Notes under the pieces: model-generated | Databases searched by the model: none | Told to the model about the DNA's origin: nothing | Seen by the model: only the letters and a program-made list of their open reading frames with translations | In this document: positions 432 to 61,995 of the stretch, piece by piece | Position numbering within the stretch: position 1 is the first letter of the stretch | Layout: each line of letters starts with the position of its first letter | Translations under genes and position numbers: made by a program | IMG/VR virus record: IMGVR_UViG_2907233695_000001 | Coordinates: 64,001 to 128,000 of that record | Reading direction: 5' to 3' (one strand) | DNA from: a virus | Lineage: Duplodnaviria; Caudoviricetes | Length of the DNA: 64,000 bases

Positions 432-517
432 TTTTACACCTCCATCAATCTCGCTCATGTTCTCTAATGCTCTGTTTTTCATCATCATTTTTACAATGAA
501 ATCTGAATTTTAACGAC

Positions 518-733
518 TCAGTACTTCTCACCATTATCATTCAATATCTCTACAACCTGTTCAATCGGAACCTTGAGAATTGAGCAAAGTCTGTCGATGG
601 TTTCCAACGTAATCGACTCACCCTTTCTGATCTTAGCAAGTGTCCTCGATGAGAAACCATGAGATTCAATCAACTCTTTAAATGTCATTTCTTGTTCCTC
701 TAGAGTTTTCAATAATGGACTAAAATTAATCAT
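518..733 (-). CDS. XRE/Cro-family HTH regulator (YozG-like)
   Basis: SSRTLAKIRKGESITLETIDRLCSILKVPIEQVVE signature. Confidence 0.85.
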   Translation of the reverse strand: MINFSPLLKTLEEQEMTFKELIESHGFSSRTLAKIRKGESITLETIDRLCSILKVPIEQVVEILNDNGEKY

Positions 734-771
734 CTTATCACCTCAATAACCAACATAATTTCCATATATTG

Positions 772-800
772 AATATAACATGTTTACATGTGTAAATCAA
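772..800 (-). promoter_or_regulatory. Sigma-A promoter containing a 14-bp palindromic operator (TTTACATGTGTAAA, 783-796)
   Basis: Minus strand TTGATT-17-TATATT with extended -10 TG. Confidence 0.75.
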
Positions 801-878
801 TACGATAATTAATATTTTATATATTATTCATCTTTTATTTTTTTCATGATAAGAGGCATTGCTGCCTCATAAAACTTA

Positions 879-1556
879 TTACTTCATTGGTTTTAATTTT
901 AATGCCCTATACGTCATCAAACATGCTTCTAAGTAATCGCGTTCGTCAGATGTTAAATTTGTCATCGAATAAGAATTAGAGCGAGCATTAAGAAACCATT
1001 GGGGAATACTTGTTTCTTCTTCCTTTAGATATTCTTCAAATTTAGTTTTAATGATAATACCTTGTTTTTTTCTAGTATCTTTCCATTTCTGAAATCTAAG
1101 TAAATGATTCAATTGCATTAACAACTCAATAGGATTATTCAAATACAAAGTTTCATCTATATCAATAGGTAGTTGATATTGCATCTTTAGACGTTTCAAC
1201 TTAACTAAATCATCTTTATGCTGTTTCCCTTTGTCTGCTATGGCAGATAAATCGCCTATCATCGTTAACAAATCTGTTACCAAGTCGGCCTTGTTAAGTT
1301 CCTCTTTAACTTCTTCTGGAGCCTTCTCCATATATGCTGCTCGAATCAACAGTTCAGGATCGTTTCCAGTTAATTCTGCAATTGCCCTGTTCAATTCGTT
1401 ATTCGCAGGAGAAACCTTCCCATTTTGCAACTTACTCAAATAGGCTTTATCAACTTGGAATCCAATTTTCTTAAGTTTGTTCGATAATACTTGCAGTGAA
1501 AATGGAGACCTTGCTATATAATCCTTTATCATGTCAGCATAGTTCATTATCATCAC
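879..1556 (-). CDS. XRE-family repressor-like protein
   Basis: N-terminal HTH (YLSKLQNGKVSPA...DPELLIRAAYMEKAP); adjacent to four operators. Confidence 0.75.
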   Translation of the reverse strand: MMIMNYADMIKDYIARSPFSLQVLSNKLKKIGFQVDKAYLSKLQNGKVSPANNELNRAIAELTGNDPELLIRAAYMEKAPEEVKEELNKADLVTDLLTMIGDLSAIADKGKQHKDDLVKLKRLKMQYQLPIDIDETLYLNNPIELLMQLNHLLRFQKWKDTRKKQGIIIKTKFEEYLKEEETSIPQWFLNARSNSYSMTNLTSDERDYLEACLMTYRALKLKPMK

Positions 1557-1577
1557 CCGTTACATATCATACCACTC

Positions 1578-1669
1578 GTTGTATTTTTTAGTCAACCAAT
1601 GTTGTACGTTGACTACAACGAATATATGTAGTATATTAAATACAACAATCGTTGTACTAGTTTTACTAC
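1578..1669. promoter_or_regulatory. Four tandem operators GTWGTA-N7-TACWAC overlapping divergent promoters
   Basis: Copies at 1578-1596 (right arm GTCAAC), 1601-1619, 1628-1646, 1651-1669; rightward TTGACT-17-TATATT at 1609-1637. Confidence 0.8.
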
Positions 1670-1712
1670 GTTTAAGGGAAAGGAGATGAGAACAAATATG
1701 CGAACATAAATA

Positions 1713-2718: not shown

Positions 2719-2752
2719 ACACAGGTAGATTAATTCTTCCTGTGTTTTATAT

Positions 2753-3846: not shown

Positions 3847-4898
3847 TTATTTGTTTTCAACCACCAGTCCGATTGATTTTAAATATTCAATTTGAGCATC
3901 CGTTATCAGCAAAATGTCTTCTATTGTGTACAACTTTCCTTTATTCTTCAAATAATCTTGAATAAACTCTGCTTCTTCGAGTTCATCTACTTTCACTAAG
4001 ATCACTTCTCCTTGAACAATGTTGTGTACCAAACACTCCTTAACTTATAAGGAAAGACGAGTTTCATAAGCTTTTAAAAATTTCAGTAAGATCAATGGCA
4101 TCTTCAAATGCAATCTCATGAATATAGCATTCTCCAGAAACAACTTCGCCATTGTTCCTGATTTCAGTGCATACAATACCTCCACCTGAATATCGAAGCG
4201 GAATAACTATGATATTATCGCATCTTGGCAATTTTAAAATTTTCATACTTACCTCCAGTTGAATCACAAATTTTAAGCCGATTTAACTAATTTACTTTTA
4301 ATCTGCTGTAACGATAAATCTTTAACCATTCTACAGTAATAATCAAAACTGCTGGAATTCAAATCTTCGACTGTTATAAGCTCATCTGTATAGTTGTCGA
4401 TGATATCAACTTTGAATCCATTCGGCTTTTCAAAAATTACAAAAGTTACATCAGCGTAGTAATCATGCTCATCAAGGATTGTTTCTGCTGCATCTGCTGT
4501 TATGTATTCACTGTTAGAAATAATCCGCTTAAGTAAATAGTCTCTTTCAATAAATCGAATCCTCTTGGCATTTTTCACGTTTTAAATCCTCCCATATTCC
4601 TTTTTAGCGTCATTGACTGCCCACACAATACCAACCATTACAGCAAGCCATAGGATCGAACCTAACGCTTTCCACCAAGTTGAATCTATAAAGTCCATAC
4701 ATCGGCCTCCTCTTTATATGTATCCCGTTCCTCTTTGGTGTGGAATACGCTTAATATAGAACTACGATAAGTTTTTACACGTTGCTTTCCGTTAATAAAA
4801 ACAGAAGCCAAGTATTTTTCTTGCTCTGGATAATAATCCTTAATGATTGCTTTACCCAAACCATTAATCCAAACTGCTTGATTCTTTGCGAAGATCAT
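3847..4898 (-). CDS. Run of small hypothetical ORFs (3847-4032, 4064-4267, 4273-4578, 4582-4698 single-TM, 4686-4898)
   Basis: Each has an RBS; tightly packed and co-oriented. Confidence 0.65.
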
Positions 4899-4936
4899 TT
4901 TTTGTTGTCCTCCTGTTATATGATAAATCGAAGATT

Positions 4937-5425
4937 TTATCGAGGTAAATCACGAGAAAAGACAGACCCACGCTTAGGTGCTGCTACTTCTTCTGGAGCA
5001 ATCCCTTTACCTACTACACTCAAACGGCCTTCATCGTACCATTGCCCATCACGAGGCTTACCATCTTTATCAACTGGAGGTTCTACCCAATATTGATTAC
5101 AATTATGAAGGTTTTCAATTACCACTAATACCTTACCTCGAAAACCAGACACTTTATCCTGAACTTCTGTACCCAGAGGAATAGCATATATTTTTTGATA
5201 TTCATCTTCTCCATGCACTGCTTTAGAATCATCGACAATTTCAATTCTAGACTCATCAAAATACTCCGTTTTCTTGGGTGTTCCATCTGATGCTAATTCT
5301 TGAGGTGCTATGCCATATTGAGCACATCCGAACAAATGAGCGTTACGAGCAATAATAATACCTTCAAATCCAGATACACTGTCTTTAGCTACTACGTTCA
5401 TTGGATAATTAAATTTTGTTTGCAT
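4937..5425 (-). CDS. Protein with two tandem SH3-like repeats
   Basis: KDSVSGFEG...GCAQY...DG...YFDESRI and QDKVSGFRG...NCNQY...DG...WYDEGRL; AGGAG RBS before ATG 5425. Confidence 0.7.
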   Translation of the reverse strand: MQTKFNYPMNVVAKDSVSGFEGIIIARNAHLFGCAQYGIAPQELASDGTPKKTEYFDESRIEIVDDSKAVHGEDEYQKIYAIPLGTEVQDKVSGFRGKVLVVIENLHNCNQYWVEPPVDKDGKPRDGQWYDEGRLSVVGKGIAPEEVAAPKRGSVFSRDLPR

Positions 5426-5478
5426 TGTAGTCCATCTCCTAGTTTTTATTTTGTTATGATTAAAAAAGCTGCTCTTTA

Positions 5479-8400
5479 TCAAAATTCCTCAATTGAGACC
5501 AATTCATAATTACAACAATTTTTAATCGCCTCGGCTTGAGCAAGAATTAATGCTTCTTTCTCACAAAATGCATAAACTGTAGTCGTCCATCCAATCAATC
5601 TCACTTCATATTTCTTAGGTTTCATTTTTCATCTCTCCTGCTATCGAATAAAATTGCTTTTTCATTAGTTCAATCTAATCACATGTTGAGTCTTACACTT
5701 TTTACATTCTACATAGAAAGAACCAATATATTCCCAATGATGTTGATGCAATAACTTACAAATTAACTGTTTCAATTTTCAAATTCCCCTTTGCTTCAAT
5801 ACTTCTGGCCTCATACTCTGCATCCGTCTCGCTGTTATAGCAGGTTTTACATTCATCATAGAAACCAAAATGAACCTCTCCACAATTGCTACAGACTTTA
5901 AATTCAACCTCTACCATGCACACTCAACTCCTATGCATAATTTAGTTTTCAACTTGCCTGAGCCAATCCTAGAGCCTCTAAGACTTCATCATAGATACCA
6001 TTGTCATAGATAAACTGATTTACATGTTCAACTTCTTCATTGGTGAGCGAGATTTCAAAAGCCTCCGTACCTTCAAGCAGTGCCGTTATGATGATTTCAC
6101 CATCTGGATCATAAACCAGATTCAAAATAGTCACTACGTTAACACCAATCTCAGCAGCTTCGGCCTGAGTCAATTGCACATCTAACAATACTTCAACGAA
6201 TTCCTCTGACTTTAACACCATTACCAAACCTTTTGCTTTCATGTTCAAACACTCCTCTTGATGTTATTAGAGTAAAGATTGGTTTCCAGTTAGGCGAGTA
6301 ACATTTGGGGCAAACCATCGTTTTCTCTTGATACTCCGCAAAGGTAAATTGAGAATTACATCTTTTACATTCTTTTTTACACATTGTCATATGTATTGGT
6401 TCATCTCCTGTTTTATAGGATATTATATGCACTGGCCTATATTCATGTTACAATTCAATTCATATATTTTTCTTTTATAACTTTTGCAATGGCCTCGTTA
6501 ATCTTATACGTATCATAACCGATGTGTATTTCGTAAATAGTGAAATTGCTGTATGCAGGAAATTTGCGTGATGTAAGCTTGAATGGTTCGCCTGATCTAA
6601 TCCGCTGCAATAGTTCTTGAGTGGTTATTCCAGACACATAAATCAACTCCTCGCAAATTGTTGCTCCTTATTGATAAAGTCAATCATGTTATCAATAGCC
6701 TCGCTTCTAGACTTACCAAAAGCCACTCTGCCAAACAAATCTTCAACCACCCACATAAAGCCACGTTGATAAATTGAAAAATTCTCTTTTTGTTTGTTGC
6801 CGTTAATAATTTCTTGAAAGTCAAATTCACTGCCCATGTTTATCTCCTCCATTCCACAATTTAATCAATTCATGCTAAATGCTACAACTAAATACATCTT
6901 GTTATCAATAGTAAAAACTACTGTTCGGATATTTAATACATCGGAAATAACATAAGAATTTAATTTGGCATATAGATTAATTTTTCATCCCTGCTTTCCT
7001 TGTGATTCAGTGGCATAAATTCCAGCCACCCGTTTGTGCCTAGCTAAAACTTTTCATTGTCTCATAGTCTCATCTCTCCAATGGTTTATGCTTTATATAA
7101 ACAAGAAACATTATCGAGCCATTCTCAATCTTTTGAACATCATATACATTCATTAATTAATCCATTAGAATATTTCTAACTACAAACATTTAGTTTTTCC
7201 TCCATATATTATCCCTAGTAAATCCATAAAAAACCCACAAGAAGAACCAAGCCGCTGTTACTGACGTTCCAATTACACCTAGGTTTACATTTTCTAATAT
7301 GCCAGCTAAAGATACATAAGAAAATAACAATCCGAAAGACAATGAGAATATCTGTATTAGTAACATAAATATTTTTACTGCAATATGCTTATTTTTCATT
7401 TTTAACCTCGTTCAAAAGGAGTCATCGATTCAAGTCCATATACATTTCGTTTGCCATTAACGACATTGCTTCTGTGTTATTAGAAATAAGCATCATCATA
7501 AATGTTTCGTACACCTTTCTATATTCTTCTCCAGTTAAACCCTTACGATTTGCAACCTGTCTAAACTCTCCAAGTAAAGCACGTGCTTTCGCATCATTGT
7601 TTAAAACATCGATTACTTTTTGACTAATCATTTTAGACACCATCCCCTCGAAATACTTCTTTTATTGTACTTCTTTTTCCAGTTGCTCAAGTTGTTCTGC
7701 AATAAAATCAATCTGCTCCTGTGTCCAATCATCATCATATTGCCAATCATTCATTCTTAAGTTTACCTCCTCATGAAAGAATCCTTTTATCGTCTTTTTT
7801 CTAATTCTACTCGTGTTATGTCTTTTTCATTAATTCCATGTTCCTTTGTTGCTTTTTTAACTGCGTATTTTTCATCGTTAGCTATAATCCGAGTAAATAT
7901 CTCCTTACCGTTTGAAAGAGTATGGTAAACTAAATAGAAAGGTTGCGCCGTTAATCCGTTCATTTTACTTCATCTCCTTTTAAAATATTCAATTCATCAG
8001 AACCATTTGCCATAATAGTGTTCATCCTGCTTTTTCTTTGATAAGGTGTTACATTGATTTTGCTCATCTTTCAATATAATCTCTTTATCATCTTCATAAA
8101 CAATCTCATACAACTGACCCTTTGTAAAAATTATAGAAATGCAATCTTCTACACACATTAGGTTTCGTTTTTTTGATTTATCCTTTTTAATTTCATCTAA
8201 GTGATTAATTAAAAAGTCTTTACCCTCAATTGAAAGATGAATATTTTTCATTAGTTTATCAATCCTTTCTCAATCATCCATTGTCTTGTATTGCTTGAAC
8301 AGTGGTCATAAAACCCTTTTTTAACAATCCACTTTCCAGCATCAATCATATTATCAAATGTTTTTAAAACTTTCGCCGCTACATTTGAACTACCAGTGTA

Positions 8401-8490
8401 GTAAGTGTTTTGTTTAACTTGAATTTTTCTACTACCTGAAGTATTTTTTTGACTAGACTCCTGAAAAAATACAATCACTTTGTTTTCCAT
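5479..8490 (-). CDS. Array of small hypothetical ORFs (5479-5625, 5949-6248 acidic, 6193-6432 CxxC, 6455-6646, 6643-6852, 7190-7399 2-TM, 7422-7643, 7662-7754, 7787-7963, 7997-8251, 8251-8490)
   Basis: Co-oriented, mostly with an RBS; many end in the 18-bp palindrome. Confidence 0.65.
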
Positions 8491-8547
8491 TTTTGAAAAT
8501 CCTCCTCATCGAATGAAAATATAGTTTCATTACCATTTGTTACCTTA

Positions 8548-8576
8548 ATATTAGCACGTTTACATATATAAATCAA
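8548..8576 (-). promoter_or_regulatory. Sigma-A promoter with the 14-bp operator (8559-8572) driving the small-ORF array
   Basis: TTGATT-17-TAATAT; TTTACATATATAAA. Confidence 0.7.
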
Positions 8577-8716
8577 TATGTATTTTCTATATTTTACTTA
8601 ATTTATTTTCTTTATTCATATTAAAAATCCCACATATCAATTATTCATTGATACATGGGATCATGTTTTAAATTTAAATATAAACGGCAACTAGTAACAT
8701 CCCTTTCGACTGTTGG

Positions 8717-8869
8717 TTACATGACCAGCATTATTCTAATGTTTCCTTGTTCAAAACGCTTATCTTTCTCTGCTTTGCTAATTGCTTTCTGAGGATCAAT
8801 ACCCCATTCAATAAGTTTATTCATCAGCATTTCCTTTGTAAAAGCTCCTTTGCCAACAACAAGAAACAT
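8717..8869 (-). CDS. Small hypothetical protein (50 aa) downstream of the toxin
   Basis: MFLVVGKGAFTKEMLMNKLIEWGIDPQK...; AAAGGAG RBS. Confidence 0.55.
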   Translation of the reverse strand: MFLVVGKGAFTKEMLMNKLIEWGIDPQKAISKAEKDKRFEQGNIRIMLVM

Positions 8870-8897
8870 ATAATCGACTCTCCTTTTAAATTTTTAT

Positions 8898-9299
8898 TTA
8901 TACACAAGCAGCAACTTGTTTTTCTGGAATATAATTAAACAATCCAAAACTAATCATAAGAGCCTCATCAACTTTAGTCATATCTCTTGTACTAACAACT
9001 GCGTCTAGTTTATGTAATACTCTTCCCTTATCTACAAATCTGCATTGTTCCAAAAGCGCAATGCTGCTTTCTTTTAAATTTAGATTAACATGAGTAGGTA
9101 ACATTTTTTTAACCTTCGAAGTAATAGGACAAATGCCCACAACTGGTGAAAATCTATTTCCAATGTCATTAGAAACAACTAGACATGGCCTCAATCCTTT
9201 TTGTTCAGCTCCCACAGCGAAGGTTAAGTCGCAAAGCACAATATCTCCACGTTTGATTTCTAATTGATCCATACTTTTCACTCCTATATCTAAATTCAT
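8898..9299 (-). CDS. mazF: PemK/MazF-family endoribonuclease toxin
   Basis: IKRGDIV..DL....G.EQ.G.RPCLVVSNDIGNRFSP...PITS...LEQ.R.VDK.R signature. Confidence 0.9.
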   Translation of the reverse strand: MNLDIGVKSMDQLEIKRGDIVLCDLTFAVGAEQKGLRPCLVVSNDIGNRFSPVVGICPITSKVKKMLPTHVNLNLKESSIALLEQCRFVDKGRVLHKLDAVVSTRDMTKVDEALMISFGLFNYIPEKQVAACV

Positions 9300-9318
9300 A
9301 TTTTATGTTTATAATCAC

Positions 9319-9362
9319 ATTATACTGTTCCAATTAACCAAACACAAGCGAACATTTGTTTT
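9319..9362 (-). promoter_or_regulatory. Sigma-A promoter with an adjacent LexA-like box
   Basis: TTGTGT-17-TATAAT; CGAACATTTGTTTT at 9349-9362. Confidence 0.55.
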
Positions 9363-9585
9363 ATTTCCAACTTGTCAATACTATTTTCTGTTATGAAAAT
9401 CCATCTTGAAATATGCTCCATTTTATGGTATCGGCATCATCAATCACACCCCTTTGTATATCTTATTTATACCCAGTTTGTACATATGCTAATCATTTAA
9501 TCATTAAATTATAATCATATTTTCATTTTTAAGTAATAAAAAATCACCTCCAGCTTGCGGAGATGATCCTAAAGAAATCTACATT

Positions 9586-10432
9586 TTATGCTATGTCCGA
9601 ATCTCCAATTTCAAAAATAAAACCTTTGGATAAGCCTTCAGTTACTTTAACTTTGATTTTTTCACCTATGCTAACTATTTCAACTTCATCAGATATTAAT
9701 CCGATATAAGGGAAATCATGAGCATAAGCGAGACAAACCTTTTGACCAACTTCAAGCTTTTTCATTTGTATACAACTCCTTTAAATGAGAGTATGAATCA
9801 GTCATTTTATTGGAAAATCTCTTCAATGTCTTCTCTTTCGTTAATTTGCTCAAGAATGAAATCTAAGCCCCACTGAGATACTTCTTCATCGGACATCTCT
9901 TTAGGATCAAGCTTTCCAATACCTTCAGATAAGGTTTTTTCTAACATGTACTTTCCGTATTCCAGAGTTGTGTATTTATCTCCATCGATAATAAAACTTC
10001 TCATTTTCTTTCCCTCCATTTCACACAATAAAATAACCCTTTTATTTGGTAATAATATCCCAAACTAAATTAAATAAGCCTCGCTCAAACATAATGCTCT
10101 TGTACTCTCGCCATTCAGTATACGAAGTTGTGATACCCAATTTCGCTTTGTGATAACTGGTTTTAGCCTTAACAAAGAGTTCTTCATTGCTATATTCCAT
10201 ACTCAGCCCTCCAATCCTTTTCTTGTTCTGCTGCTTCTGATTTGCTTGCAACATAAATTGCGTCACCTATTTGGTTTCCTTCATGATCCTTCAACTGAAC
10301 AACCCACGAGCGTGTTCCTCTGTCGTACCATTTATCAACTTTAGCTGGTTTTTGTTCAGTATCTTCTAGTGAGAAGTTATATTTAAACTTTTTCATTTCG
10401 ACACCTCCTATGTATTTCCTTCTTGACTCCAT
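9586..10432 (-). CDS. Four small hypothetical ORFs (9586-9765, 9807-10028, 10042-10266, 10190-10432)
   Basis: RBS present; three stop codons lie inside the 18-bp palindromes. Confidence 0.65.
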
Positions 10433-10542
10433 TATAACCCATATATTTATATATGTAAAGTTTTAATATCTATATTTTACTTTATTTATTTTCAAACGAA
10501 ATCATCTTTTCAATGGGAAAAGAAAAAGCCCTAAAAAAGGGC

Positions 10543-11670
10543 TTATTTAAACACTGGCACACCATCTTTAATTGTATATTGCATACCTTTGTTTTCTTTG
10601 CTCTCCACTTGTTTCTTTTTGGCCTGTGACCTACCAGTAATCATATCCTCAATTGAACTAAGTTTCTTCTTGCTCTCTGCATACTTCTTTTTCCACTTTT
10701 CAACTTCTTCTGAAAGTTGCTGATTCTTCTCATTCACCTGCTCAATAAGTCGATCCTTATCCATGGTTATAAAGTCAGCCATTGTCTTGTCGCTTTCCAA
10801 TTCATTCACCCGAAGTCTCAGCATCGTGTTATCATCTTTTAGTTTAAATACATCATCAAGCAAATTACTGTTTTTCTTAAACAAGTCATCAATAACAATT
10901 GTTTGGGAATTATGTATCTGTTCCAGCATCCCATTATCAATATATACACTTTCAACAGATGAAGCCGTTTCTTCAACCGTTACCAATTGGAGGTGATTTT
11001 TCTTTCTTCCTCTTAACTTTTTATTTTGTTCAACAGTTTCAAAAAACTTTTCGTCTGTGATGATCGTTTTTAAGCTATTGTTGTATTTATTCAAACAAGC
11101 AGCCTTTGTATGATTTATTTTCTCTGATGCTTTTTGTGCTGCCTCTCCAAGTGTTCCACCATTATTGATTGTACTATAGTAACAATCCAGCAAAATCAAT
11201 TCTTCTTTTGGTGTCCATGTTACAAGATGGTGATCCATGGCCTTAGACCGTTGCTCTTTGCTTGCAGACTCTTCAACGTTAAGGAGGTACGTTCTAACCT
11301 GCTTTGCAATTTCGCTGTCTCTGAGAAGCATTCCAATGCGTAGGATCGACCTTCTCGGAATCAACTTTACTATGAACTGGTTAGGGTTTAAGGCTTTTGA
11401 CAAGATGTCAAAACCCTCTGATTTAGAAGTAACTTTCTTGACTCCATCTGATTTGAATTCATCTTTATGCCTATGCAATACTTGGTCAATAGCTGTCTTG
11501 TTTACTTCGTAATAATCTGCCACCATTTGAACCGTCATGCTCTCACCGTCCGGTAACAATGAAAGCAATTTAACCTTATTCATTACTTCCGTTTTAACTA
11601 TGTATTGATCTCGAAAACTTTGATCCTCAATGAATTTTTCCTGTAATGCTAAATTTGTCAAAATAAACAT
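10543..11670 (-). CDS. Antirepressor-like N-domain + RsfA/Myb-like domain + coiled coil
   Basis: VADYYEV...RIGMLLRDSEIAKQVRTYLL; WTPKEELILL...GGTLGEA...INHTKAAC..KYN; heptad-rich C-terminus. Confidence 0.7.
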   Translation of the reverse strand: MFILTNLALQEKFIEDQSFRDQYIVKTEVMNKVKLLSLLPDGESMTVQMVADYYEVNKTAIDQVLHRHKDEFKSDGVKKVTSKSEGFDILSKALNPNQFIVKLIPRRSILRIGMLLRDSEIAKQVRTYLLNVEESASKEQRSKAMDHHLVTWTPKEELILLDCYYSTINNGGTLGEAAQKASEKINHTKAACLNKYNNSLKTIITDEKFFETVEQNKKLRGRKKNHLQLVTVEETASSVESVYIDNGMLEQIHNSQTIVIDDLFKKNSNLLDDVFKLKDDNTMLRLRVNELESDKTMADFITMDKDRLIEQVNEKNQQLSEEVEKWKKKYAESKKKLSSIEDMITGRSQAKKKQVESKENKGMQYTIKDGVPVFK

Positions 11671-11759
11671 CTCCTTTTATATAATTTATAATTGATTAAT
11701 GTAAATATAACATATGAATTTATGTATGTAAATATAGGAAAATAAAAAACTCCAAGGGA

Positions 11760-17344: not shown

Positions 17345-17517
17345 TAGAACCGCCTCCAGTGATTAATTGAATTTTTTTAATTCCTTATATTTCTTATTAT
17401 AAGGCTTTACATATATAAAGTCAAACATTATTTATTGTTTTTATATCTTTTATTTTAAATGTTTGTAACCCTATGAAGCAGCTATTTCATTCCCTGATAC
17501 AAAAAGAAAACCGCTTT

Positions 17518-20107
17518 TTAGCGGCAAGAATACATAGGTAAGGAATATTCTTTTGTAGGAACCCAATGTAATTTGATACGATCCTTTTCTATTGAATCAA
17601 TAACTAGATCGTAATTGATTTCAGGATATGCGCTGTTTACGTATACTTTGTATCCTTCTTTGAAGTTGTTCCAGTTACAACCTTTGAAGATATCAAGAAG
17701 TTGTTTTCCTGTTTCTGTGTCAGCCGATACATAACCACCATTTACAAAGTACATCATTAGAAAATCCCTCCATTTGTTTTCCTTTAGTTTATACTTTATA
17801 TATATGTGAATCAAGTTCAGTTTATAACCATTAATTTTATATTTTTTGTATTATATAGCCCCATAAAACAACTCATTTATAGGGTTATTGCCATTCGAAT
17901 GGCAAACCATTATTAAACCGAGTTTCGACCGCTTTTTTCCACGCTGCTAAACGTTTGAATTCTTTATGATCCCCATTAACTAAAGTAACCCCACCTTGAT
18001 TCTTATCTACTTCATAATAGGCCATTTACAGAGTAATAAGAAACTTTTACCGAGATTGAATTTCCTTCATAATCAACTTTAAATTTCATATCTGTCAACC
18101 TCCTTTAAACATTAACTAACCCCTTAACTATATTTTACCATAGTCATTTATAAATGTAAAGTTATTCATTTCATTATACGTATTTTATTTTACACTCACA
18201 CAATAAAACAAAAAGAGGCTTTTCAGCCTCTCACACCATGAACGCTTTTCCTTTGTTCGCCATCTTATCAACTTGATTTATAATAATGTTTATGAGCTTC
18301 TCACGGTTTTTAGTGTTAACTTTGATTAATAGCTGCTTTTTTAATTCGTTTAGTTCTGGATCAGTTAGCGAGTTTACAAAGGTTTGAAGCGTTCCAGTGT
18401 GATAAGAACGAAAAGCAGCGTCAAACAATTTGTAATCATATTTCATTTTTTATCCTCTCCTCTTTTGCTTTATACTTTATTATATGAGAGAGTTAATAGA
18501 AATATGACAAAACAAACGTAATTTTTATTATTTTTACGTTTGTTTTGTTTCGGTTATTTTGCCCAATCAAAATTATCATTCTTTAGCTGCTTTTTATGTT
18601 CACTATATAATCGGTTTACGTCGATTGGCTCAAGCTCAATATTTAATTCATATTGATAACGTGTATTAACAATTTCTGATATTTTGGTTTGATCCTTTGT
18701 TAGTACTGCATTATGCAATTCCTCATTGAAAACAGCTTTTAACAGAATGAATTCATTTAATTTTAACATGGGTATTACCTCCATTAAGGTTATAAATGTA
18801 ATATTTTATTCTAATAATTCAATTCATTATTTAACCGCTTAATTTCAATTTTTATTAATTTGTCAATCGTTTTTTTGGATTGCAAATTAGTTAGTGATTT
18901 AATGATTTCTAAATCATGTTTTAAGTTTGCAATTTCTTGAATTAAGGTTATTTTATCCATCTAATTTATTCAAACTCCTTTTTTTATAATCTCAAAGCCG
19001 ATAAGGGGAATTACATAAAAATTCATTCGTGTTTTTAAGTCTAATTGCAAATTTCATTTTATAATCTCTCCTAGTAGATTATTATACATAATAAATAAAG
19101 GGGAAATATTAATCCCCTTTATCTTAATACATGTATTAATCCTTTTTCATCTCTTCTAACCTTAATTTTACCTTTTTCAGCATCTTTTTTTAATTCGTCA
19201 ACTTTTTCCCATTCGTAGTTACGACCATTTATTAAGGCAATTTCATAGCCTTGATCCTTTAAAAATGCTTTCGCCTCTTTATCGTAAAGCGTTTCTTTAA
19301 TGAATCCAGTAATATCGCCATGCATAACAGGAGTAATATTGTAGCCTACAACATGAAAGCCTTTTTCCATAATTCTGACTTCTAAATTCGCTTTTTTTGT
19401 TTTCATTTGTAAAACCTCCTATGTATTAAACTCTATAGTTAAATAATACCATAGAAATTTATAAATGTAAATATTTAAAGTACATCTTTTACGTTTTATT
19501 TTTGGTTATAAAATTAAAACTTTATCGGCTTATGCAATCTTATCTAACACATTAAAATAGAATCGGTTTAATGGATCATCAAAGTCTGTAGAGGTGCGAA
19601 GTGTAAAGTTTAAAAGGCCTGCAAAGCCTCCAGAAGCTTTGATTTTGCGTTTGAGTATCTTGTAAGTGTATTCGCTGCTCTCCTCTATATCACGCATATG
19701 TAGGCCGTTTTGATTGTGTATAATCATCTTTCCATTGTAAAACTGAAAATATAAAACCTTGATAACATCCCCATTGTATTTAGTTAATTTATATTCATTC
19801 ATGCACTGAAAAGTTTTCGCTGCTGGTTCTTGCTTATGCGCTTTCAATACTTTGAATGCATGATTAAAGTAAATCATTATATGTCATCCTTTCAAGCATT
19901 AACCGCTTATGTACTTTATACAACTTTATAAGTAATAAAATCATATGTGCCTTTAATCGGCCTAATTGCATAACCATTTGATACAATTTCATTAGCTAGA
20001 ATCTGAGCCTTTTCTTTATTGCTGAATGTTTCTAAAATTTCATTAACTGTAGTGTAATGGTCAAACACTTTACCATAGTATACTTTAATTTGCATATGTA
20101 TCAGCAT
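17518..20107 (-). CDS. Small early hypothetical ORFs (17518-17757, 18231-18446, 18554-18784, 19119-19406, 19530-19877, 19916-20107)
   Basis: RBS and individual promoters/terminators. Confidence 0.6.
18479..18507 (-). promoter_or_regulatory. Sigma-E-type sporulation promoter
   Basis: TCATATT-14-CATATAAT matches the B. subtilis sigma-E consensus. Confidence 0.55.
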
Positions 20108-32957: not shown

Positions 32958-32972
32958 GGGAGAGTGTTTACT

Positions 32973-33458: not shown

Positions 33459-33517
33459 GAATAATCTCCCCCTCTGCTTTTTATTTTTATTATGTTCCGA
33501 GGAGAGGTGTTTTAAAC

Positions 33518-33706
33518 ATGGAAGTAATAACAGCAATGGCAGTGGTTGCACTTGGCTTGAAAGTTGCAGTAGCTCTGGGGTCAGTGGTCGGAATTACTTC
33601 AGGAGTCAATTGGTTCAACAAGAAGACCATTAATCTGAAAGGTAGTGGTAAGGATGAAGGTAAGCATGAATCCCTCCCGAGATTTCACCGTGATGATATC
33701 GAGTAA
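33518..33706 (+). CDS. Small membrane protein
   Basis: Hydrophobic N-half; GAGGTG RBS. Confidence 0.6.
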   Translation: MEVITAMAVVALGLKVAVALGSVVGITSGVNWFNKKTINLKGSGKDEGKHESLPRFHRDDIE

Positions 33707-34181: not shown

Positions 34182-34198
34182 AAAACAAACAACAATTT

Positions 34199-35452: not shown

Positions 35453-35455
35453 TAC

Positions 35456-42024: not shown

Positions 42025-42300
42025 ATGAAAAAAGAAGATTTGATTTTGAAATTTGCAGGTAAAACAGGTCATTCCAAGAAAGATGCTACAGTTTGCGTAG
42101 ACGCATTCCTAGATTGTATCGTTGAAGGACTTGACGAAGATGGTGTAGTGGATATCACTAAGGTGCTGAAACTAACCGTAAAAGAAACTTCTGCACGTAA
42201 AGGTCGCAATCCTCAAACTGGCGAAGAAATTGAAATTCCTAAAGGTAAGAAAATCGCATTCAAAGCATTGAAACGTCTAGATGAAGTTGTAGGCAAATAA
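42025..42300 (+). CDS. hup: HU-family DNA-binding protein
   Basis: ARKGRNPQTGEEIEIP...FKA. Confidence 0.93.
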   Translation: MKKEDLILKFAGKTGHSKKDATVCVDAFLDCIVEGLDEDGVVDITKVLKLTVKETSARKGRNPQTGEEIEIPKGKKIAFKALKRLDEVVGK

Positions 42301-46844: not shown

Positions 46845-47438
46845 ATGGAAAAAGAACAATTTAAAATGCCCTACTCTGCACTTGATTTTGAGGAATATAC
46901 TTTTTTCAGAGCTTTAGAAGATCGTCAAATTATCTTAAATAGCGAAGTCGATGATTATCTTCTCGAACGTGTTGGATATCAAATCATCAAGTGGAATCGT
47001 GAAGACGATAAATTGCCTGATGGTGAGTCTCGCAAGGAAATTGAAATTATTCTCAATAGTCCCGGTGGAGACGTATATCTTGGCATGGCACTATGCGCTG
47101 TAATTGAGAAATCAGTAACTCCTATTGCAATCACTGTCATCGGTAATGCTGCTTCAATGGGTGCTCTCTTGCTTGTGTCCGGTTCTAGGCACGGACGTAG
47201 ACGAGCATACGAGTTCTCGAATGTCCTCTTCCACGATGGTTCGACCGTACTTTATGGTTCCAGTAACAAGGTAAAAGACCATGTTAAATTCCAAGAGGAA
47301 AAGGATCAACAAATCCGAGACTTTATTATTCGTAACACTAAGATTACAGATGCAAAGTATGAGGATATGAAGGATCGTGAGTGGTGGCTCACTGCTAAAA
47401 GTGCATTAGAGTGGGGCGTTATCGATGAGATTATTTAA
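46845..47438 (+). CDS. clpP: ClpP-family protease
   Basis: LNSPGGDV, AASMG (Ser), FHDG (His), DREWWLTA..ALEWGVIDEI. Confidence 0.9.
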   Translation: MEKEQFKMPYSALDFEEYTFFRALEDRQIILNSEVDDYLLERVGYQIIKWNREDDKLPDGESRKEIEIILNSPGGDVYLGMALCAVIEKSVTPIAITVIGNAASMGALLLVSGSRHGRRRAYEFSNVLFHDGSTVLYGSSNKVKDHVKFQEEKDQQIRDFIIRNTKITDAKYEDMKDREWWLTAKSALEWGVIDEII

Positions 47439-47648
47439 TTAATTAAAACTTATTAAAACTCACATTTCATAAACTTTTTGAACTAGACTGACTCACCATC
47501 TTGGTGGGTCTTTTTGGTTTGCAAAGTTTTTGAGCTGGAAGCAATCTGTTTAAGGTCGTGTAAAGTAAGGGCGATATCTCCCGTCTACCCCTTAGTCCAG
47601 CTCAAGATATTTTAGCCCATATTCGGGTTAGGGAGATTCTTTTCTTTT

Positions 47649-48605
47649 TTGAAAGAAGGTGGAAATATGGCTAGGCCAAAAGGGAGCAGCGCTAAAGATA
47701 AACTCGTAATAGAAAAGATTAAATGTAAAGGCAAGTGTGGTAAAGAAAAAGCGCCAACAAATTTTTATATAAATACAAACCCACTCTTCTCTTCTGAGAA
47801 GTTAGAAGTGTGTAAGGATTGCATATCAGAATATATAGGTACTAAAAGTTCGTCAGGATATCTGAATAGAGTAAAACTTGTTCTTGGACTTATGGATAAA
47901 CCTTTCCTCTATGACTTATGGATATCAAGAGATGAAGATTGGGGAAGGTATATCCCTCAATTATCTTCGTTTCCTCAGTACAAAGGATTGACGAATGCAG
48001 ATAGTACATTTACTGATAAAAAAATAAACACAGAAAACCCAAATGAAAGCTTTGTGCTAAACAGTTCTCCAAGCAGTTACACGAGTGAAGAAATTTCAGA
48101 GTTATCTTCATTTTGGGGTAAAAATTACACTCCTGATGAACTTGAATATCTGCAAACACAATATGAGAAATTTCTAAACTCTTATGAATGCGACTCCTAT
48201 GCAATGGAATTGCTTTTCCAAGAAGCATCTCAGCAAAGGTTAACAATTAATAAATTGCGTCAAGAAGGTAAATCGGTAGACAAAGAACTCAAAACTCTCC
48301 AAGACTTGTTGGGATCAGCAAATGTTAAACCCGTTCAAGAGACAGGTGCAAATGCAACGGAACAGGCCACGTTTGGAACCTTGATTAAGAAATATGAAAA
48401 CGAGCGTCCAATTCCTGAGCCTGATGAAGCTTGGAAAGATGTTGATGGAATAAAGCGTTATATCCAAGTTTGGTTTCTCGGACACCTGTGTAGAATGATT
48501 GGAATTAACAACGACTATTCCAGACTTTATGATGAAGAAATTGCCAAATATACTGTTGATCCTCCAAAGTACGATGATGACATCAGCGAAGAGGTAACAG
48601 TATGA
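47649..48605 (+). CDS. Probable terminase small subunit (YonG-like, Zn finger)
   Basis: CxxxC...CKDC; overlaps the large-subunit start. Confidence 0.65.
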
Positions 48606-50374
48606 GTGGTTTTGCGAATTTTCAGGTTAATCGTAACAAGGCTCATAATGGTAACGATATCTTCGCTAAAAGTAGAAATTTTAATAAGTCAGCAGATAAA
48701 TCTGAAAGACTTCTGGATGGCATAGGGGTTTGGGCTAGTTTCTATCGTGCAAATCCACATCGATTTGCTAAAGAATATCTTGGGATTACATTAAAGTTGT
48801 TTCAAATAATCCTCATTTTCATGATGAACTTCTCTCACTACTTCATGTATTTAGCTAGTCGAGGTCAAGGGAAAACATTCCTTACTTCTATCTATTGCGT
48901 GATTCGCTGTATCCTTTGGCCTGAAACTAAAATTGTAGTTGCTTCAGGTAATATGAAACAGGCAAGAGAAGTTATAGAGAAGATTGCTGATTTAAGAAAG
49001 AACTCACCTAATTTATCTAGAGAAATTAGTGACTTATCAACTTCAACAAACGATCCTAAAGTAGAGTTTCATAACGGTAGTTGGATAAAGGTAGTTGCGT
49101 CAAATGATGGAGCACGAAGTAAAAGAGCAAACTGTCTTATTGCAGATGAGTTTCGAATGATTGACTTAGAAATCATCAACAAGGTACTAAGAAAGTTTTT
49201 AACTGCTCCTCGGCAACCAAAATATCTAAACAAGCCTGAGTACGCACATTTACAAGAGCGAAACAAGGAAATCTATCTCTCGTCCAGTTGGTATAAGATT
49301 CATTGGTCATGGAATAAGTTGCTTGCATTCTACAAATCGATGTCTGAAGCAAAGAACTATTTTGTGTGTGGGCTCCCTTATCAGTTAGCAGTCAAAGAAG
49401 GATTGCTAATGAAGGAACAAGTTGAAGATGAGATGTCTGAAGCAGATTTTGATGAAATTGGATTTAGCATGGAAATGGAATGCTTATTCTTTGGCGAGTC
49501 AGAGAAAGCCTTCTTTAAATTTGAGGAATTGGACAAGAACAGAAGAATCTCTAAGCCATTGTATCCAAAGGAAATGTATCCTCTTTTAAAGGATAACTCA
49601 TTTAAATACGAGCCTAAAAAAGATGGTGAATTACGCTTGGTTAGTTGCGATATCGCAGGTATGGCAGGAAAAGAAAATGATGCCAGCGTATACACTATTT
49701 TTCGCTTAATACCAAACTCTAAGGGATTTGATCGCCATATCGTCTATATGGAAAGTATGTCTGGTGGTCATACCGTAACTCAAGCAATCCGTATAAGACA
49801 ATTATATGATGATTTTGACTGCGATTATCTTGTATTAGATACGCAGAATATGGGATTGGGCATATATGACCAATTGGTTCAGCCTTTGTATGACAAGGAC
49901 AGAAATGTTGAATATGATCCTTGGACTTGTATCAATGACGATAAAATGGCTGAAAGATGTACTTATACAAACGCACCGAAACTTATTTATAGCATCAAGG
50001 GTAATATGCAGTTCAATAGCGAGTGTGCAATCCTTCTTAGAGATGGATTAAAGCGAGGAAAGGTTAGATTGCTTGCTAAAGAGGCTGATGGCAAAGAGTA
50101 TTTGAAGAGTTTAAAAGGTTTCGAAGCTCTCCCGATTGAGATACAGGTAAAATACGAAGCCGTATTTATCCAAACTACTCTACTCGTAAATGAAATGATT
50201 AATCTTGAGGGTGAACGAACAGATAATGGTTTAATTCGTCTTAAAGAGCCAAAGTCCAAACGGAAAGACCGTTATAGTTCGGTTACATATGGGAATTTTA
50301 TAGCTTCGGAACTTGAGCGTAGTTTATTTAAAGAGAACAATTACGACGACTATAACTACTTCATCTACAACTAA
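48602..50374 (+). CDS. terL: Terminase large subunit
   Basis: [19 protein letters not shown]...ND nuclease, RKDRYSS. Confidence 0.92.
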
Positions 50375-59318: not shown

Positions 59319-59480
59319 TAATTTTATATTCTTCTAAGAGAGGCAATCATTTTGGTTGCTTCTCTTTTTATTTACCAAATGAAATGTTGGTTTTATTGTG
59401 ATTTTCATCTTGAGAAACCCTTTATTTATAAGGGTTTTTGAATATGAGGATTAAAAATATTCAGGGAGGTTTTATCCAAA

Positions 59481-59978
59481 ATGTCAAAACAACTTACGCT
59501 TTCATCCATAAATAAAGCCCACGCAAAAGAGTTCAACGAACAAAAGCGAGTAACACTTAAAACAGGTGATTATATCGATTTACAAGTAAGGTTTAAGAAA
59601 ACTAGTATTCAACGCTTCTTAATCGACTATCAAGAAATCCTCGAACAACTTAAAGAAAAAGAAGTGGATATGAACGTCATTAAGGACATCACTTTTATTT
59701 TCTATATGCTCCTTCTACGCCACTTCACAAGTTTAAATATTATCCCGAACGAAGTTGATAAAATGGTAATTGTCTGCGAAAAGTTGATCGACCTTGATAT
59801 TCTAGAGGAAATCATGAATGCTTTTGATCCTGCTGAAATTGAAAAAGTGAATAATATGATGAAACAAGTTAGTGAAAATAGCGACTTGATTGGAGAGCAA
59901 TTAGGAGAGATTTTTGCTAAGGCTGCTTTGAGTAAATTGACACAAAACGAGGTTGAGCAAGATGCCAACATTCAATAG
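59481..59978 (+). CDS. Tail assembly chaperone-like protein
   Basis: Position after the tube gene. Confidence 0.5.
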   Translation: MSKQLTLSSINKAHAKEFNEQKRVTLKTGDYIDLQVRFKKTSIQRFLIDYQEILEQLKEKEVDMNVIKDITFIFYMLLLRHFTSLNIIPNEVDKMVIVCEKLIDLDILEEIMNAFDPAEIEKVNNMMKQVSENSDLIGEQLGEIFAKAALSKLTQNEVEQDANIQ

Positions 59979-60411
59979 TTTGAATGAACTTCAAAAATAC
60001 ATCGAGTCTCAAGCATCAAAAGTATTGAAAAATGAAGTTGCTCAAACAGTTACTCAGGAAATGAGTGAGACAATAAAAGAAGTTGAGTATCCCAAGTATG
60101 TATCACATGCTGAGAATCCGTATATTAGACAAATGGATGATGGTGGCTTGAGTGACGTTCGAAACATGCAAGTAGAGGTTATAGACGATAACACTATATC
60201 CATTACTAATGAGCGTATGGATGGTACTACAGATGTAGCACAAATTTTCGCAACAGGTATTGGATATACATGGAAGAATTCTGAAATTTATAGTATGCAA
60301 CCATTTCCTCGTAATTTCTATGCCGATACTGTTGAAAGATTGTTAAAGAATCAGAAACACGTTGAGGCATTTAAACAAGGTATGACTAGGCTAGGATTGA
60401 ATGTGAAATAA
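59962..60411 (+). CDS. Tail completion-like protein
   Basis: PYIR....GLSD..N, PFPRNFY..T motif; position. Confidence 0.55.
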   Translation: MPTFNSLNELQKYIESQASKVLKNEVAQTVTQEMSETIKEVEYPKYVSHAENPYIRQMDDGGLSDVRNMQVEVIDDNTISITNERMDGTTDVAQIFATGIGYTWKNSEIYSMQPFPRNFYADTVERLLKNQKHVEAFKQGMTRLGLNVK

Positions 60412-60555
60412 ATTTTAGATTTTGAATTACTTGTTCAACAAGCGCACAAGGGTTGCAAACCTTGAGTGTCACTAACTCATCCTAGTGATACGTTGCGCTT
60501 GTTTCTTTTTATATAGGGAAGTTGGGATGGGGTGAATTGAGAGGATGAGAAAGTA

Positions 60556-60744
60556 ATGCCAGCAAAAATAGATTTTAATATTATATATGAAGGAATAATA
60601 AACTATACAAGAAAATTGGGAAGAATACCTACAAATGCTGAAATAGATCAAAATGATAATTTACCCAGTTATCGAACAATACATACTGCATTTGTTAAAA
60701 ACCAAGGTCAGGGATACATTCCATATTTAATTTCAAAATGCTAA
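60556..60744 (+). pseudogene. Truncated homing-endonuclease-associated repeat ORF
   Basis: KLGRIPT..EID...LPSY.TI...F repeat with no nuclease domain. Confidence 0.55.
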
Positions 60745-60850
60745 AACGTAATAATTTAAATTACAAAATACTTTATCCTGCTGATTTTCACAATAAATCG
60801 CTTGATGAAGTATTTTCTTTTTTATTTGAAGAATCAAGAGAGGTGGTTTA

Positions 60851-61873
60851 ATGCCTAGAAAAACATTTAAAAAGCAAATCACATCACCAGAACTGACAGA
60901 ACAAATAAATCAAAAAAATAAGAAACTGATTGATCGTTTCTTGAAGGAAAAAAATACACGATGTTCAGACACAACAATTGAAGCTTACACCAGCGACTTA
61001 AATATTTTCTTCACATGGAATCTTCTGAATAATGAAAATAAATTTTTCATTGAAATTAAGAAGATTGAATTCGCAGATTTCTTTAGTTACTGTGTTGAAG
61101 AATTAAAGTGGGGTTCTGCTCGTTTTGGACGAATGAAGTCTTGCCTTAGTTCGCTCTCTGAATTTATCATTCGATACTATGATGAAGATCATCCCAATTT
61201 TAGAAATGTTATCCTAAAAGCAATTGAATCAATGCCTCGTAACCCTGTACGAGAAAAAACGATTTTATCTGAAGAACAAGTAAATAGTCTTTTGAATCAT
61301 CTTAAAAATGAAATCAGCAGACCTCAAGAAGCCTGTCTTCTCGCGTTAGCAATCGCAAGTGGTGCAAGGGTCTCTGAGTGGCTACGATTCACAACCGATA
61401 TCATAGATGAAAATAACACGGCTTTTGAAGATATGTTTCTTGAGACTACTAAGAAAATAAAAACTAAAGGCCGAACCAAGACAGGCAAAATGATTGAGAA
61501 GTATATAATTAAAGACATTTTCCTGCCCTATTATAAAGACTGGTTGGTTGAGAGAGAAAGAATTATGAATGACAAAGGCAAGGATCATAATTCAATCTTT
61601 ATTAAAAGAGATGGTGAACCTGCCACAGTTGAGACAGTTCGAGGATGGATCGAAAAATGGGAATTATTTTTGGGAGTTCCTTTCTATCCTCATTGCCTTC
61701 GTCATTTCATAACTACCTACATGTCTCGTCTAGGAATGTCTTCTGATTTTATCGTTGAAGTGATGGGATGGAATTCTACTGACATGGTTAAGGTCTATAA
61801 CGACTTAACCGCTAAAGAAAAGAAATGGAAAGACCTAGAAAAACTGAAGGATCACTTAACTAAAACAGAATAA
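60851..61873 (+). CDS. Tyrosine recombinase (YomM-like) within the tail module
   Basis: SGARVSE, KTKG, HCLR, MGW, VKVY; stop codon lies inside an 18-bp palindrome (61870-61887). Confidence 0.88.
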   Translation: MPRKTFKKQITSPELTEQINQKNKKLIDRFLKEKNTRCSDTTIEAYTSDLNIFFTWNLLNNENKFFIEIKKIEFADFFSYCVEELKWGSARFGRMKSCLSSLSEFIIRYYDEDHPNFRNVILKAIESMPRNPVREKTILSEEQVNSLLNHLKNEISRPQEACLLALAIASGARVSEWLRFTTDIIDENNTAFEDMFLETTKKIKTKGRTKTGKMIEKYIIKDIFLPYYKDWLVERERIMNDKGKDHNSIFIKRDGEPATVETVRGWIEKWELFLGVPFYPHCLRHFITTYMSRLGMSSDFIVEVMGWNSTDMVKVYNDLTAKEKKWKDLEKLKDHLTKTE

Positions 61874-61995
61874 AATCACACTTTCATTCCATCGCACAAA
61901 AAAAACAAAATAAGCAAGTTTGACTAAGAGAGCCAAATTTACAGGTTCTCTTTTTTATATCTAACAAAACAAAAAAACATAGGAGGAATTATAAA

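Follow-up and report, generated by a model that had tools for sequence, protein, structure and literature searches.

We analyzed a 64,000-nucleotide stretch of viral DNA (the window), which corresponds to bases 64001–128000 of the phage contig C13 (164,118 bp, 35.2% guanine plus cytosine (GC)), and in particular an 18-bp palindrome that recurs at its gene junctions. Genes on the contig point leftward from 1 to 95.2 kb and rightward from 95.4 kb. The large terminase (window 48602–50374) is 69.5% identical to YonF of SPbeta, and the contig also encodes YopP-, YopQ- and YopR-like proteins, a serine integrase homolog and an HU-like protein. Because of these similarities, C13 is, as judged from its proteins, a distant SPbeta-like phage. 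The window carries two tyrosine recombinase genes, the HU-family gene and a plasmid-like block (Table 1). An earlier note on this DNA had listed eight copies of the palindrome and offered two explanations: a site acted on by one of the recombinases, or dispersed binding sites for another purpose. All eight 18-mers are present in the window at the coordinates given.

The family was revealed by the degenerate pattern ATRAAA-N6-TTTYAT combined with spacer controls (0–20). Enumeration of exact palindromes on C13 missed it because the arms are a mixture of ATAAAA and ATGAAA. The window holds 6 exact copies, compared with 0.28 in dinucleotide shuffles and 0–1 at each other spacer. Over the whole contig, 16 exact copies were counted at spacer 6 (0–3 at other spacers), along with 50 one-mismatch copies (about 13 at other spacers); copies with two mismatches showed no excess at spacer 6. 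Of the exact copies, 15 lie in intergenic or junction DNA, where other spacers give about 0.2; for one-mismatch copies the corresponding figures are 36 and about 4.9. On the contig, 52 of the 66 copies are intergenic, and 21% of the DNA is non-coding. The comparison with coding and host DNA, on which the earlier note had staked its reading, came out in favor of a distinct motif: coding DNA of the contig is near background, and the remaining 7.4 Mb of the assembly contains 10 copies at spacer 6 versus 3–13 at other spacers, which is no excess.

The eight listed sites were scored held-out with a symmetric half-site weight matrix trained on the 44 other intergenic copies. Two of the eight, at 59379 and 61870, match the pattern exactly, and the other six carry one mismatch each (Table 1). 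Their scores ranged from 11.8 to 19.5 bits, thresholds at which control spacers yielded 0–9% as many matches; the least certain are the copies at 47453 and 19508. At the lowest threshold the contig has 73 sites, compared with 6.8 at control spacers, which leaves approximately 65 real ones. These results demonstrate that the family of about 65 gene-junction copies on C13 is genuine and that its excess is confined to spacer 6 and, within the assembly, to the intergenic DNA of the phage.

Copies of the palindrome fit tightly between neighboring genes. In the leftward arrays, the left arm (in gene sense) often contains the TAA or TGA stop of the upstream gene within ATRAAA, and the right arm ends 0–3 nt ahead of the GGAGG of the next gene. 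Throughout the dense run at 4050–11680, every copy is preceded by the stop codon of a leftward gene and followed by the Shine-Dalgarno sequence of its downstream neighbor. Among the 48 copies at co-directional junctions of the contig, 24 start no more than 5 nt from the upstream stop (18 of these overlap it), and 18 end 11–24 nt before the next start. Counted in successive 20-kb segments of the contig, intergenic copies number 6, 12, 12, 11, 4, 2, 3, 2 and 0. Their density thus peaks in the early and accessory arrays and is low in the late half, where they adjoin terminator-like hairpins on either side (the copy at 59379 follows one and that at 47453 precedes one). The gene-end positions previously described for the copies at 38586, 47453, 59379 and 61870 were all borne out (Table 1).

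Table 1 Palindrome copies and candidate genes in the window. Scores are held-out half-site matrix scores; P(real) is the estimated probability that a copy is real.
Feature	Window position	Strand	Description	Score (bits)	P(real)
Dense run of copies in leftward small-gene array	4050–11680		Starts at 4050, 4923, 5648, 7773, 8513, 9572, 9793, 10028 and 11663		
Junction copy ATGAAA-TCTGAA-TTTTAA	496–513		Intergenic, leftward genes, 4 nt from upstream stop; ends TTTTAA, a common variant	14.9	0.98
Junction copy, ATGAAG arm variant	17473–17490		Intergenic	15.0	0.97
Junction copy, ATTTAT arm variant	17863–17880		Intergenic	14.5	0.98
Additional copy	start 18792				
Junction copy, CTTTAT arm variant	19508–19525		4 nt from stop of 19530–19877 (-)	13.0	0.94
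Junction copy, ends TTTTAA	38586–38603		4 nt past stop of 38174–38581 (+), end of TubZ/FtsK cluster; no control-spacer match scores as high	16.7	
Junction copy, TTAAAA arm variant (starts TTAAAA)	47453–47470		14 nt past stop of 46845–47438 (+), 20 nt before terminator-like hairpin 47490–47510; weakest of the eight	11.8	0.91
Exact junction copy	59379–59396		12 nt past terminator-like hairpin 59336–59366	19.5	
Exact junction copy	61870–61887		Left arm holds the TAA stop (61871–61873) of the YomM-like open reading frame (ORF) 60851–61873	18.5	
YomM-like tyrosine recombinase	60851–61873	+	Pfam Phage_integrase, E 1e-20; tail-gene module		
YopP (SroD)-like tyrosine recombinase	28095–29147	-	Pfam Phage_integrase and SAM-like N-domain; 31% identical to SPbeta YopP, E 3e-36		
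HU-family DNA-binding protein (YonN-like)	42025–42300	+	Second candidate binder, a lead only; tblastn/blastp matches in SPbeta yonN region (47%), E3 (44%), MT835481, Tsamsa and Sundance		
Plasmid-like block	31379–37768		TubR-like ORF, TubZ (Pfam Tubulin), weak TrbL/VirB6 match, FtsK/SpoIIIE ATPase		

The same dyad recurs in other phages. SPbeta has 14 exact copies at spacer 6 versus 0–3 at other spacers (mean 1.0), and 35 one-mismatch copies versus about 12; they lie mostly in early rightward operons, follow the consensus (stop)ATAAAA-N6-TTTTA(T/A), and are conserved over about 11-6-11. Exact copies number 24 in Geobacillus phage E3 (1.0 at other spacers), 10 in the Staphylococcus SPbeta-like phage NC_029119 (0.3 expected; mean of 0.5 at other spacers), and 21, 17 and 19 in the Tyroviruses Tsamsa (0.4 at other spacers), Skywalker and pW2 (0–1 each). 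Weaker excesses were seen in the uncultured gut phage MT835481 (5 versus 0), Staphylococcus phage 6ec (6 versus 1) and Enterococcus phage VPE25 (4 versus 0.1), and a marginal one in Brevibacillus phage Sundance (3 versus 0.9). No excess was present in Lactococcus phage 949 (2 versus 0.9) or Staphylococcus phage K, with its 1 unique copy; SPO1 and SPP1 have no exact copy (0 and 0.1 at other spacers). In several of these phages the dyad ranked first or nearly first among palindromes found de novo, and its copies are many in temperate members and few in the lytic phages 6ec and VPE25. We did not find a description of the motif in papers on SPbeta, arbitrium, YonO and Tyroviruses or by a search with sequence words, a survey whose scope stopped short of Lazarevic 1999 and Brady 2023. 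The 17–21 strictly conserved CTTG-ATAAAA-N6-TTTTAT-CAAG sites of the Tyroviruses Tsamsa, Skywalker and pW2 are apparently unreported; the authors of the Tyrovirus study did not report these copies (PMC9703825).

Comparison of orthologous sites identified the bases under constraint. In 25 site pairs from Tsamsa, Skywalker and pW2, which are 73–89% identical around the compared sites, differences occurred at 1 of 300 arm positions, 31 of 150 center positions (20.7%) and 88 of 600 positions in the 12-nt flanks. Judged by this alignment, the arms and their spacing are under strong purifying selection at fixed positions, with the center free. The combination of near-invariant arms, fixed spacing and a drifting center argues for a duplex site that two protein subunits would recognize and that is retained for a role at its own position. 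Within Spbetavirus, divergence is 4.1% in centers, 3.75% in arms and 6.2% in flanks; the conservation of these centers reflects low divergence rather than selection, because Tyrovirus centers drift. We therefore did not adopt the idea of "barcoded" centers under selection, given their 20.7% drift at Tyrovirus genus-level divergence. The dispersed protein-binding sites that the earlier note had raised as its alternative find support here, as far as sequence can tell, both in the intergenic, phage-specific distribution of the copies and in the conservation of only arms and spacing at orthologous positions.

Each arm consists of 6 invariant bases and 2–5 weaker outer bases. The outer half-site differs by lineage, reading T-Y-T-R-A before ATAAAA in SPbeta and C-T-T-G in Tsamsa, being T-rich in E3 and weak in C13. 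Because these outer bases are lineage-specific and neither host DNA nor unrelated phages that share these hosts carry the motif, the pattern points to a phage-encoded protein, rather than a host protein, as the probable reader of the dyad. An IHF-like reading of the Tsamsa outer arms (TTGATA...TATCAA) was considered and dropped, the spacing seeming unlike that of an IHF site. A folded form of the palindrome was also ruled out. For the 16 exact C13 copies, the mean fold energy on the sense strand is −1.5 kcal/mol (range 0 to −3.8, several at 0.0), and the R/Y positions of C13 are more often non-complementary (G..T 22, A..C 13, G..C 8, A..T 9; Fisher p 0.02), which together exclude an RNA hairpin or cruciform.

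The reading that we lean towards, at a little under even confidence, is that the palindrome is a docking site for a phage protein that controls gene junctions. A phage-encoded protein would bind the double-stranded site with two subunits, each contacting one ATRAAA arm; the arms may reach a few outer bases further, differing by lineage, and the six central bases would be a mere spacer of fixed length. Copies would fill the short gaps between co-directional genes, after a stop (often within the arm) or a terminator and 11–24 nt before the next start. There the bound protein may act on transcription passing the junction. Much as at the stoperators of mycobacteriophage L5, it would form a roadblock or insulator, and long early and accessory gene arrays would thereby be kept partitioned or silent. 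Because selection keeps the copies in place, they would have to act where they sit, and conservation of the arms in place argues for a local function, not for a site kept solely for evolvability. The junction gaps, the proximity to terminators, the abundance in temperate members and in early and accessory arrays, and the scarcity in lytic relatives all fit a transcription-acting protein.

The stoperators of L5 and Cluster A phages offer a close parallel for such a role. They reportedly occur by the dozen in short intergenic gaps and are thought to stop passing transcription; they are said to be 13-bp asymmetric sites that are oriented with transcription, are bound by the immunity repressor and differ between immunity groups. 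The palindrome resembles them in its number and in its restriction to short gaps between the genes of a temperate phage (52 of 66 on C13). It differs in being a dyad, in having arms that stay the same in distant phages, for which a common immunity is very improbable, and in occurring also in lytic relatives. A bias between the arms within the dyad appears only on C13, and it is weak there.

Several observations weigh against a docking site of this kind. The arms are identical in Bacillus, Geobacillus and Staphylococcus phages whose terminases are only 24–70% identical, and operators normally diverge together with immunity, so that invariant arms would be unusual for a repressor operator. Some copies stand within the late operon, and lytic phages have copies too; silencing of a prophage would be senseless in either setting. 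The palindrome has no direction, unlike the reportedly asymmetric and oriented L5 stoperators. Its 10/11-6-10/11 geometry, together with the orphan tyrosine recombinases present in every carrier, suits a recombination site equally well, and no tested protein family tracks the motif cleanly over the 12 genomes compared. Binding by a protein, the choice of that protein and the roadblock are all things that we infer.

The candidate readers were compared by scoring the presence and absence of protein families over 12 genomes, which are related to one another. The two recombinases in the window had been described as catalytically intact, and they look so at the residues compared: both are Phage_integrase proteins, and these residues (R, HxxR, H/W, Y) appear to be kept in a five-sequence alignment and in an alignment with XerA 4a8e. 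In the latter, the YomM-like protein shows GARVSE, HCLRH and GW...VY; it is 26% identical to gp28 of Geobacillus phage E3, which occupies the same tail-module position. The YopP-like protein keeps R, HSFR, H and Y, compared with HSFK in SPbeta YopP. SPbeta YomM (yomM 40301–41302) and E3 gp28 (24183–25109) are 82.8% identical over 309 amino acids, and because the terminases of these phages are only about 28% identical, this suggests a recent transfer of the recombinase gene between distant phages.

YomM-like proteins were found in 8 of 8 motif-bearing genomes and also in the motif-lacking phages 949 and Sundance. A YopP-like homolog was not found in the carriers 6ec, VPE25 and MT835481, nor was a YopQ-like protein found in Tsamsa, including by hidden Markov model search. 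HU-like proteins occur in the six strongest carriers and in Sundance and are absent from 6ec and VPE25. Phylogenetic profiling of the C13 and SPbeta proteins over the 12 genomes returned no carrier-only protein, with tblastn being insensitive for small proteins. Co-occurrence of the motif with each recombinase clade, which the earlier note had put forward as a check, is not clean among these related genomes: the YomM-like clade is present in all eight carriers but extends to 949 and Sundance, and the YopP-like clade is absent from three carriers. A YopP-like reader is unlikely in view of these three phages, as is a YopQ (SroE)-like reader in view of Tsamsa. The YomM-like recombinase and the phage HU-like protein are the first candidates. 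A palindrome copy lies directly upstream of the HU-like gene in SPbeta (61158, 46 nt before the start), E3 (5682, 121 nt) and MT835481 (6481, 1 nt), which could be autoregulation or chance.

The earlier note had also singled out the copy on the stop codon of the YomM-like gene. The TAA at 61871–61873 does lie within this copy, but the arrangement is not conserved in relatives. The DNA after the recombinase gene contains terminator-like hairpins in 6ec, VPE25 and Tsamsa and no such palindrome in MT835481, and the nearest E3 copy is 218 nt downstream. A conserved arrangement of recombinase stop and palindrome was therefore rejected, and, because these relatives have no palindrome at the recombinase stop, the copy at 61870 is just one of many gene-end copies.

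MrpR (YopR, SroF) of SPbeta, which has a recombinase fold, was considered as a third recombinase-like reader. It binds SPBRE at ten promoters (PMC10516654), as a monomer that reads 24 bp (bioRxiv 10.1101/2025.11.27.690993). Its ten prominent peaks in chromatin affinity purification sequencing (ChAP-seq) are all at SPBRE-containing promoters, and none was reported at the junction palindromes (PMC10516654). Read from the ten published target promoters, SPBRE is ACAAATACAAAWAATATGTATA, which is unlike ATRAAA-N6-TTTYAT, and identity of the two elements was rejected. An MrpR/YopR-like reader is accordingly unlikely, as this protein binds a different box. The two elements are alike in being short, dispersed intergenic repeats of SPbeta-like phages, and the reader of SPBRE has a tyrosine-recombinase fold; they differ in that SPBRE has about 10 copies over promoters, whereas the junction palindrome has more copies and sits in stop-to-Shine-Dalgarno gaps. 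Two other palindromes were seen in the compared phages: AATACA/TGTATT in Sundance (6 copies, 0.05 expected), which resembles the ATACA...TGTAT core of SPBRE, and CTCCA/TGGAG in VPE25 (9 copies, 0.14 expected).

Among the alternatives, active site-specific recombination survives best, and we consider it unlikely. Here the palindromes would be Xer/pdif- or attC-like sites at which a tyrosine recombinase binds the arms and exchanges strands across the 6-bp center, so that gene cassettes are swapped between phages at matching junctions. The YomM-like protein would be the main candidate, and a YomM-like/YopP-like pair is possible in C13 given its asymmetric ATAAAA/ATGAAA arms. The geometry is that of an Xer-type core, two inverted arms around a 6–8 bp center, with a spacer of exactly 6 bp and an extent of about 11-6-11 in SPbeta. 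Every motif-bearing genome has intact-looking orphan recombinases, and the two arms of a C13 copy tend to differ (G..T or A..C), as in XerC/XerD sites.

Evidence on exchange also comes from the edges of gene blocks, which we compared in Spbetavirus and Tyroviruses; no close relatives of the C13 lineage were found for such a comparison. In Spbetavirus (SPbeta 82–97 kb and 110–134 kb, each against four relatives, the comparisons not being mutually independent), 84 of 242 intergenic breakpoint clusters fell in palindrome windows that cover about 6% of the intergenic DNA. Homology blocks start at palindrome base 0–1 (34 events) and end at base 17–20 (24 events), with the center shared. In Goe11 and SPbetaL8, two palindromes form the exact boundaries of a 2.16-kb gene whose left context differs between the two phages, and the same two palindromes bracket yoqD instead in SPbeta. 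Long identical stretches shared by SPbeta and phi3Ts have their edges on palindromes in 4 of 6 cases. In the three Tyroviruses, by contrast, copies are positionally fixed, and only 1–2 of the 17–21 copies touch a breakpoint among about 210 high-scoring segment pair ends per genome. The palindromes are thus sharp edges of swapped gene blocks in Spbetavirus and not in Tyroviruses.

Other findings also speak against recombination as the function of the sites. Centers drift freely while arms are almost invariant, which argues for a local function and not for the matching of centers. Phages 949 and Sundance have YomM-like and YopP-like proteins without the motif, and some 65 copies per genome would risk deletions. 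In laboratory phi3Ts × SPbeta hybrids, the sole crossover placed to within 40 nt is 894 nt from any palindrome; the other six of the seven crossovers lie within 1.4–18 kb of identical DNA and are hence uninformative. If the palindromes are docking sites at gene junctions, they would serve as exchange joints in Spbetavirus because the same 18–28 bp stand at many junctions in all related phages, and block exchange would be a by-product of shared sequence, not the reason for their retention. A more specific version, which we regard as improbable, holds that a late-expressed, tail-module YomM-like recombinase would swap accessory and anti-defense genes between co-resident phages or prophages at ATAAAA-N6-TTTTAT sites, only where the six-base centers match and with gene order kept. 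If true, such module exchange would be a built-in viral counterpart of integrons and dif modules in SPbeta-like phages, Tyroviruses and their relatives.

Known modular systems share some of these features. The pdif sites of the dif modules of Acinetobacter plasmids are numerous two-arm sites with a 6-bp center that flank small accessory modules in varied contexts (PMC6449649); the palindrome has the same geometry, and in Spbetavirus it bounds swapped modules. The pdif sites differ in using host XerC/XerD and two different 11-bp arms, compared with the short arms of the palindrome (6 bases plus weak outer ones), and the Tyrovirus palindromes are positionally fixed and are not breakpoints. An attC site likewise marks the 3′ end of each small, promoterless ORF, in a single orientation and often with the stop codon inside. 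However, attC sites are imperfect palindromes of 57–141 bp, which IntI recombines in folded single-stranded form at attI/Pc, whereas the junction palindrome is an 18-bp duplex with folds of 0 to −3.8 kcal/mol and without R-box GTTRRRY ends. The recombinase genes of C13 lie in the tail module and beside replication genes rather than at the head of an array, and no attI-like platform was identified on C13, no search having been aimed at IntI-type integrases. The promoter-early stem-loop (PeSL) elements of T4-type phages are intergenic repeats between small early genes, at mosaic boundaries in hyperplastic regions; they have a promoter and a stable stem-loop, and the palindrome has neither (no promoter excess, no stable fold). 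A putative Tyrovirus attP has been placed just after gp50 (PMC9703825). It is an 11-6-11 palindrome right after the stop of a tail-module tyrosine recombinase gene, the same place as the 61870 copy, but its sequence is a different one (GAAGATTAAGA-GTAACA-TCTTAATCTTC), and it is single-copy and looks like an ordinary terminator hairpin.

A signal in the mRNA is much less probable than recombination. It would be a translation-initiation element like the start-associated sequences of Cluster K mycobacteriophages, or an intercistronic RNase processing site. At many junctions of C13, Tsamsa and E3, the palindrome ends 1–4 nt before the Shine-Dalgarno sequence and 11–24 nt before the start, and the motif is on the transcribed strand of co-directional arrays. 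Yet dyad symmetry would be needless unless the RNA folded, which is at odds with the mean fold energy and with the sense-strand A-C mismatch in half of the exact C13 copies. Moreover, for many copies the next start is over 80 nt away, or the copy follows a terminator or separates convergent genes, and the Shine-Dalgarno spacing in SPbeta is variable (3–15 nt).

We give still less weight to a promoter-type element, for example an extended −10 (TGnTAAAAT) in the left arm serving host polymerase or phage-directed transcription. About 8 of the 21 Tsamsa copies do read cTTG-ATAAAA, follow terminator-like T runs and are the only element ahead of the next Shine-Dalgarno sequence. The TG belongs, however, to the symmetric outer arm (CTTG...CAAG) and is absent in C13 and SPbeta, the element would stand on both strands, and sigma-70-like matches in the window are no commoner than in shuffles. 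The polymerase YonO uses a single promoter, upstream of yonK (PMC5467207), and the gap upstream of yonK contains no palindrome copy, so that a YonO promoter was rejected. Least credible of all is recognition by a host protein conserved in Bacilli, or an origin from base composition at AT-rich junctions. Such readings would suit the identity of the arms across phages of several host genera, the TAA/TGA stops within half-sites and the in-phase A-tract pattern of A4-N6-T4. They are opposed by the lack of any excess at other spacers in the same intergenic DNA, by the absence of a spacer-6 excess from 7.4 Mb of host contigs and from SPO1, SPP1 and phage K, which infect the same hosts, and by outer arm bases that vary with phage lineage.

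The setting of the contig provides further observations. C13 is a complete-looking phage contig whose GC content is unlike that of the large contigs (about 50–55%) of the 7.56-Mb assembly; contigs of approximately 40% GC in the same assembly are C83, C97, C128, C131 and C138. Its host may be an organism other than the main one of the assembly, or the phage may be kept as a plasmid (TubZ/TubR). The block with TubZ, TrbL/VirB6-like and FtsK-like genes recalls the plasmid-like ParM/type-IV-secretion block of Tyroviruses, which has been taken as a sign of a plasmid prophage stage (PMC9703825). Contig C64 (100.8 kb, 44.6% GC) has three exact spacer-6 copies versus 0–1 at other spacers and may represent another mobile element or chance. 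Close relatives were not detected by megablast of the window against phages, by a terminase search of 400 genomes of the phylum or by a search for the RecD2-like helicase in IMG/VR. Outside the window, YopR (MrpR/SroF)-like and YopQ (SroE)-like genes adjoin at C13 57393–59741 (window −6607 to −4259), about 33 kb from the YopP-like gene; SPbeta keeps all three in one operon. No duplicated cassettes were seen when C13 was compared with itself. There is a direct repeat of 55 bp (93% identical) at C13 61771–61822 and 88800–88854 (the second being window 24800–24854), with one copy starting within a palindrome copy and the other in the region of a primase-like gene.

SPbeta has been a model phage for 50 years, and its lysogeny circuit (arbitrium, MrpR/SroF and SPBRE) is under active study. 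The palindrome is a second dispersed motif of this phage, with more copies than SPBRE, that was not found in the literature searched. It is common to the temperate giants of Bacillus anthracis and B. cereus (Tyroviruses), to Geobacillus phage E3 and to the staphylococcal SPbeta-like phages that carry resistance genes, and few non-coding bases in these genomes are as strongly conserved as its arms. Identification of its reader would give a role to an orphan recombinase-fold or HU-like protein that defines these phage groups, and would explain why the hypervariable accessory regions of Spbetavirus, home of anti-defense genes, break exactly at the palindromes.

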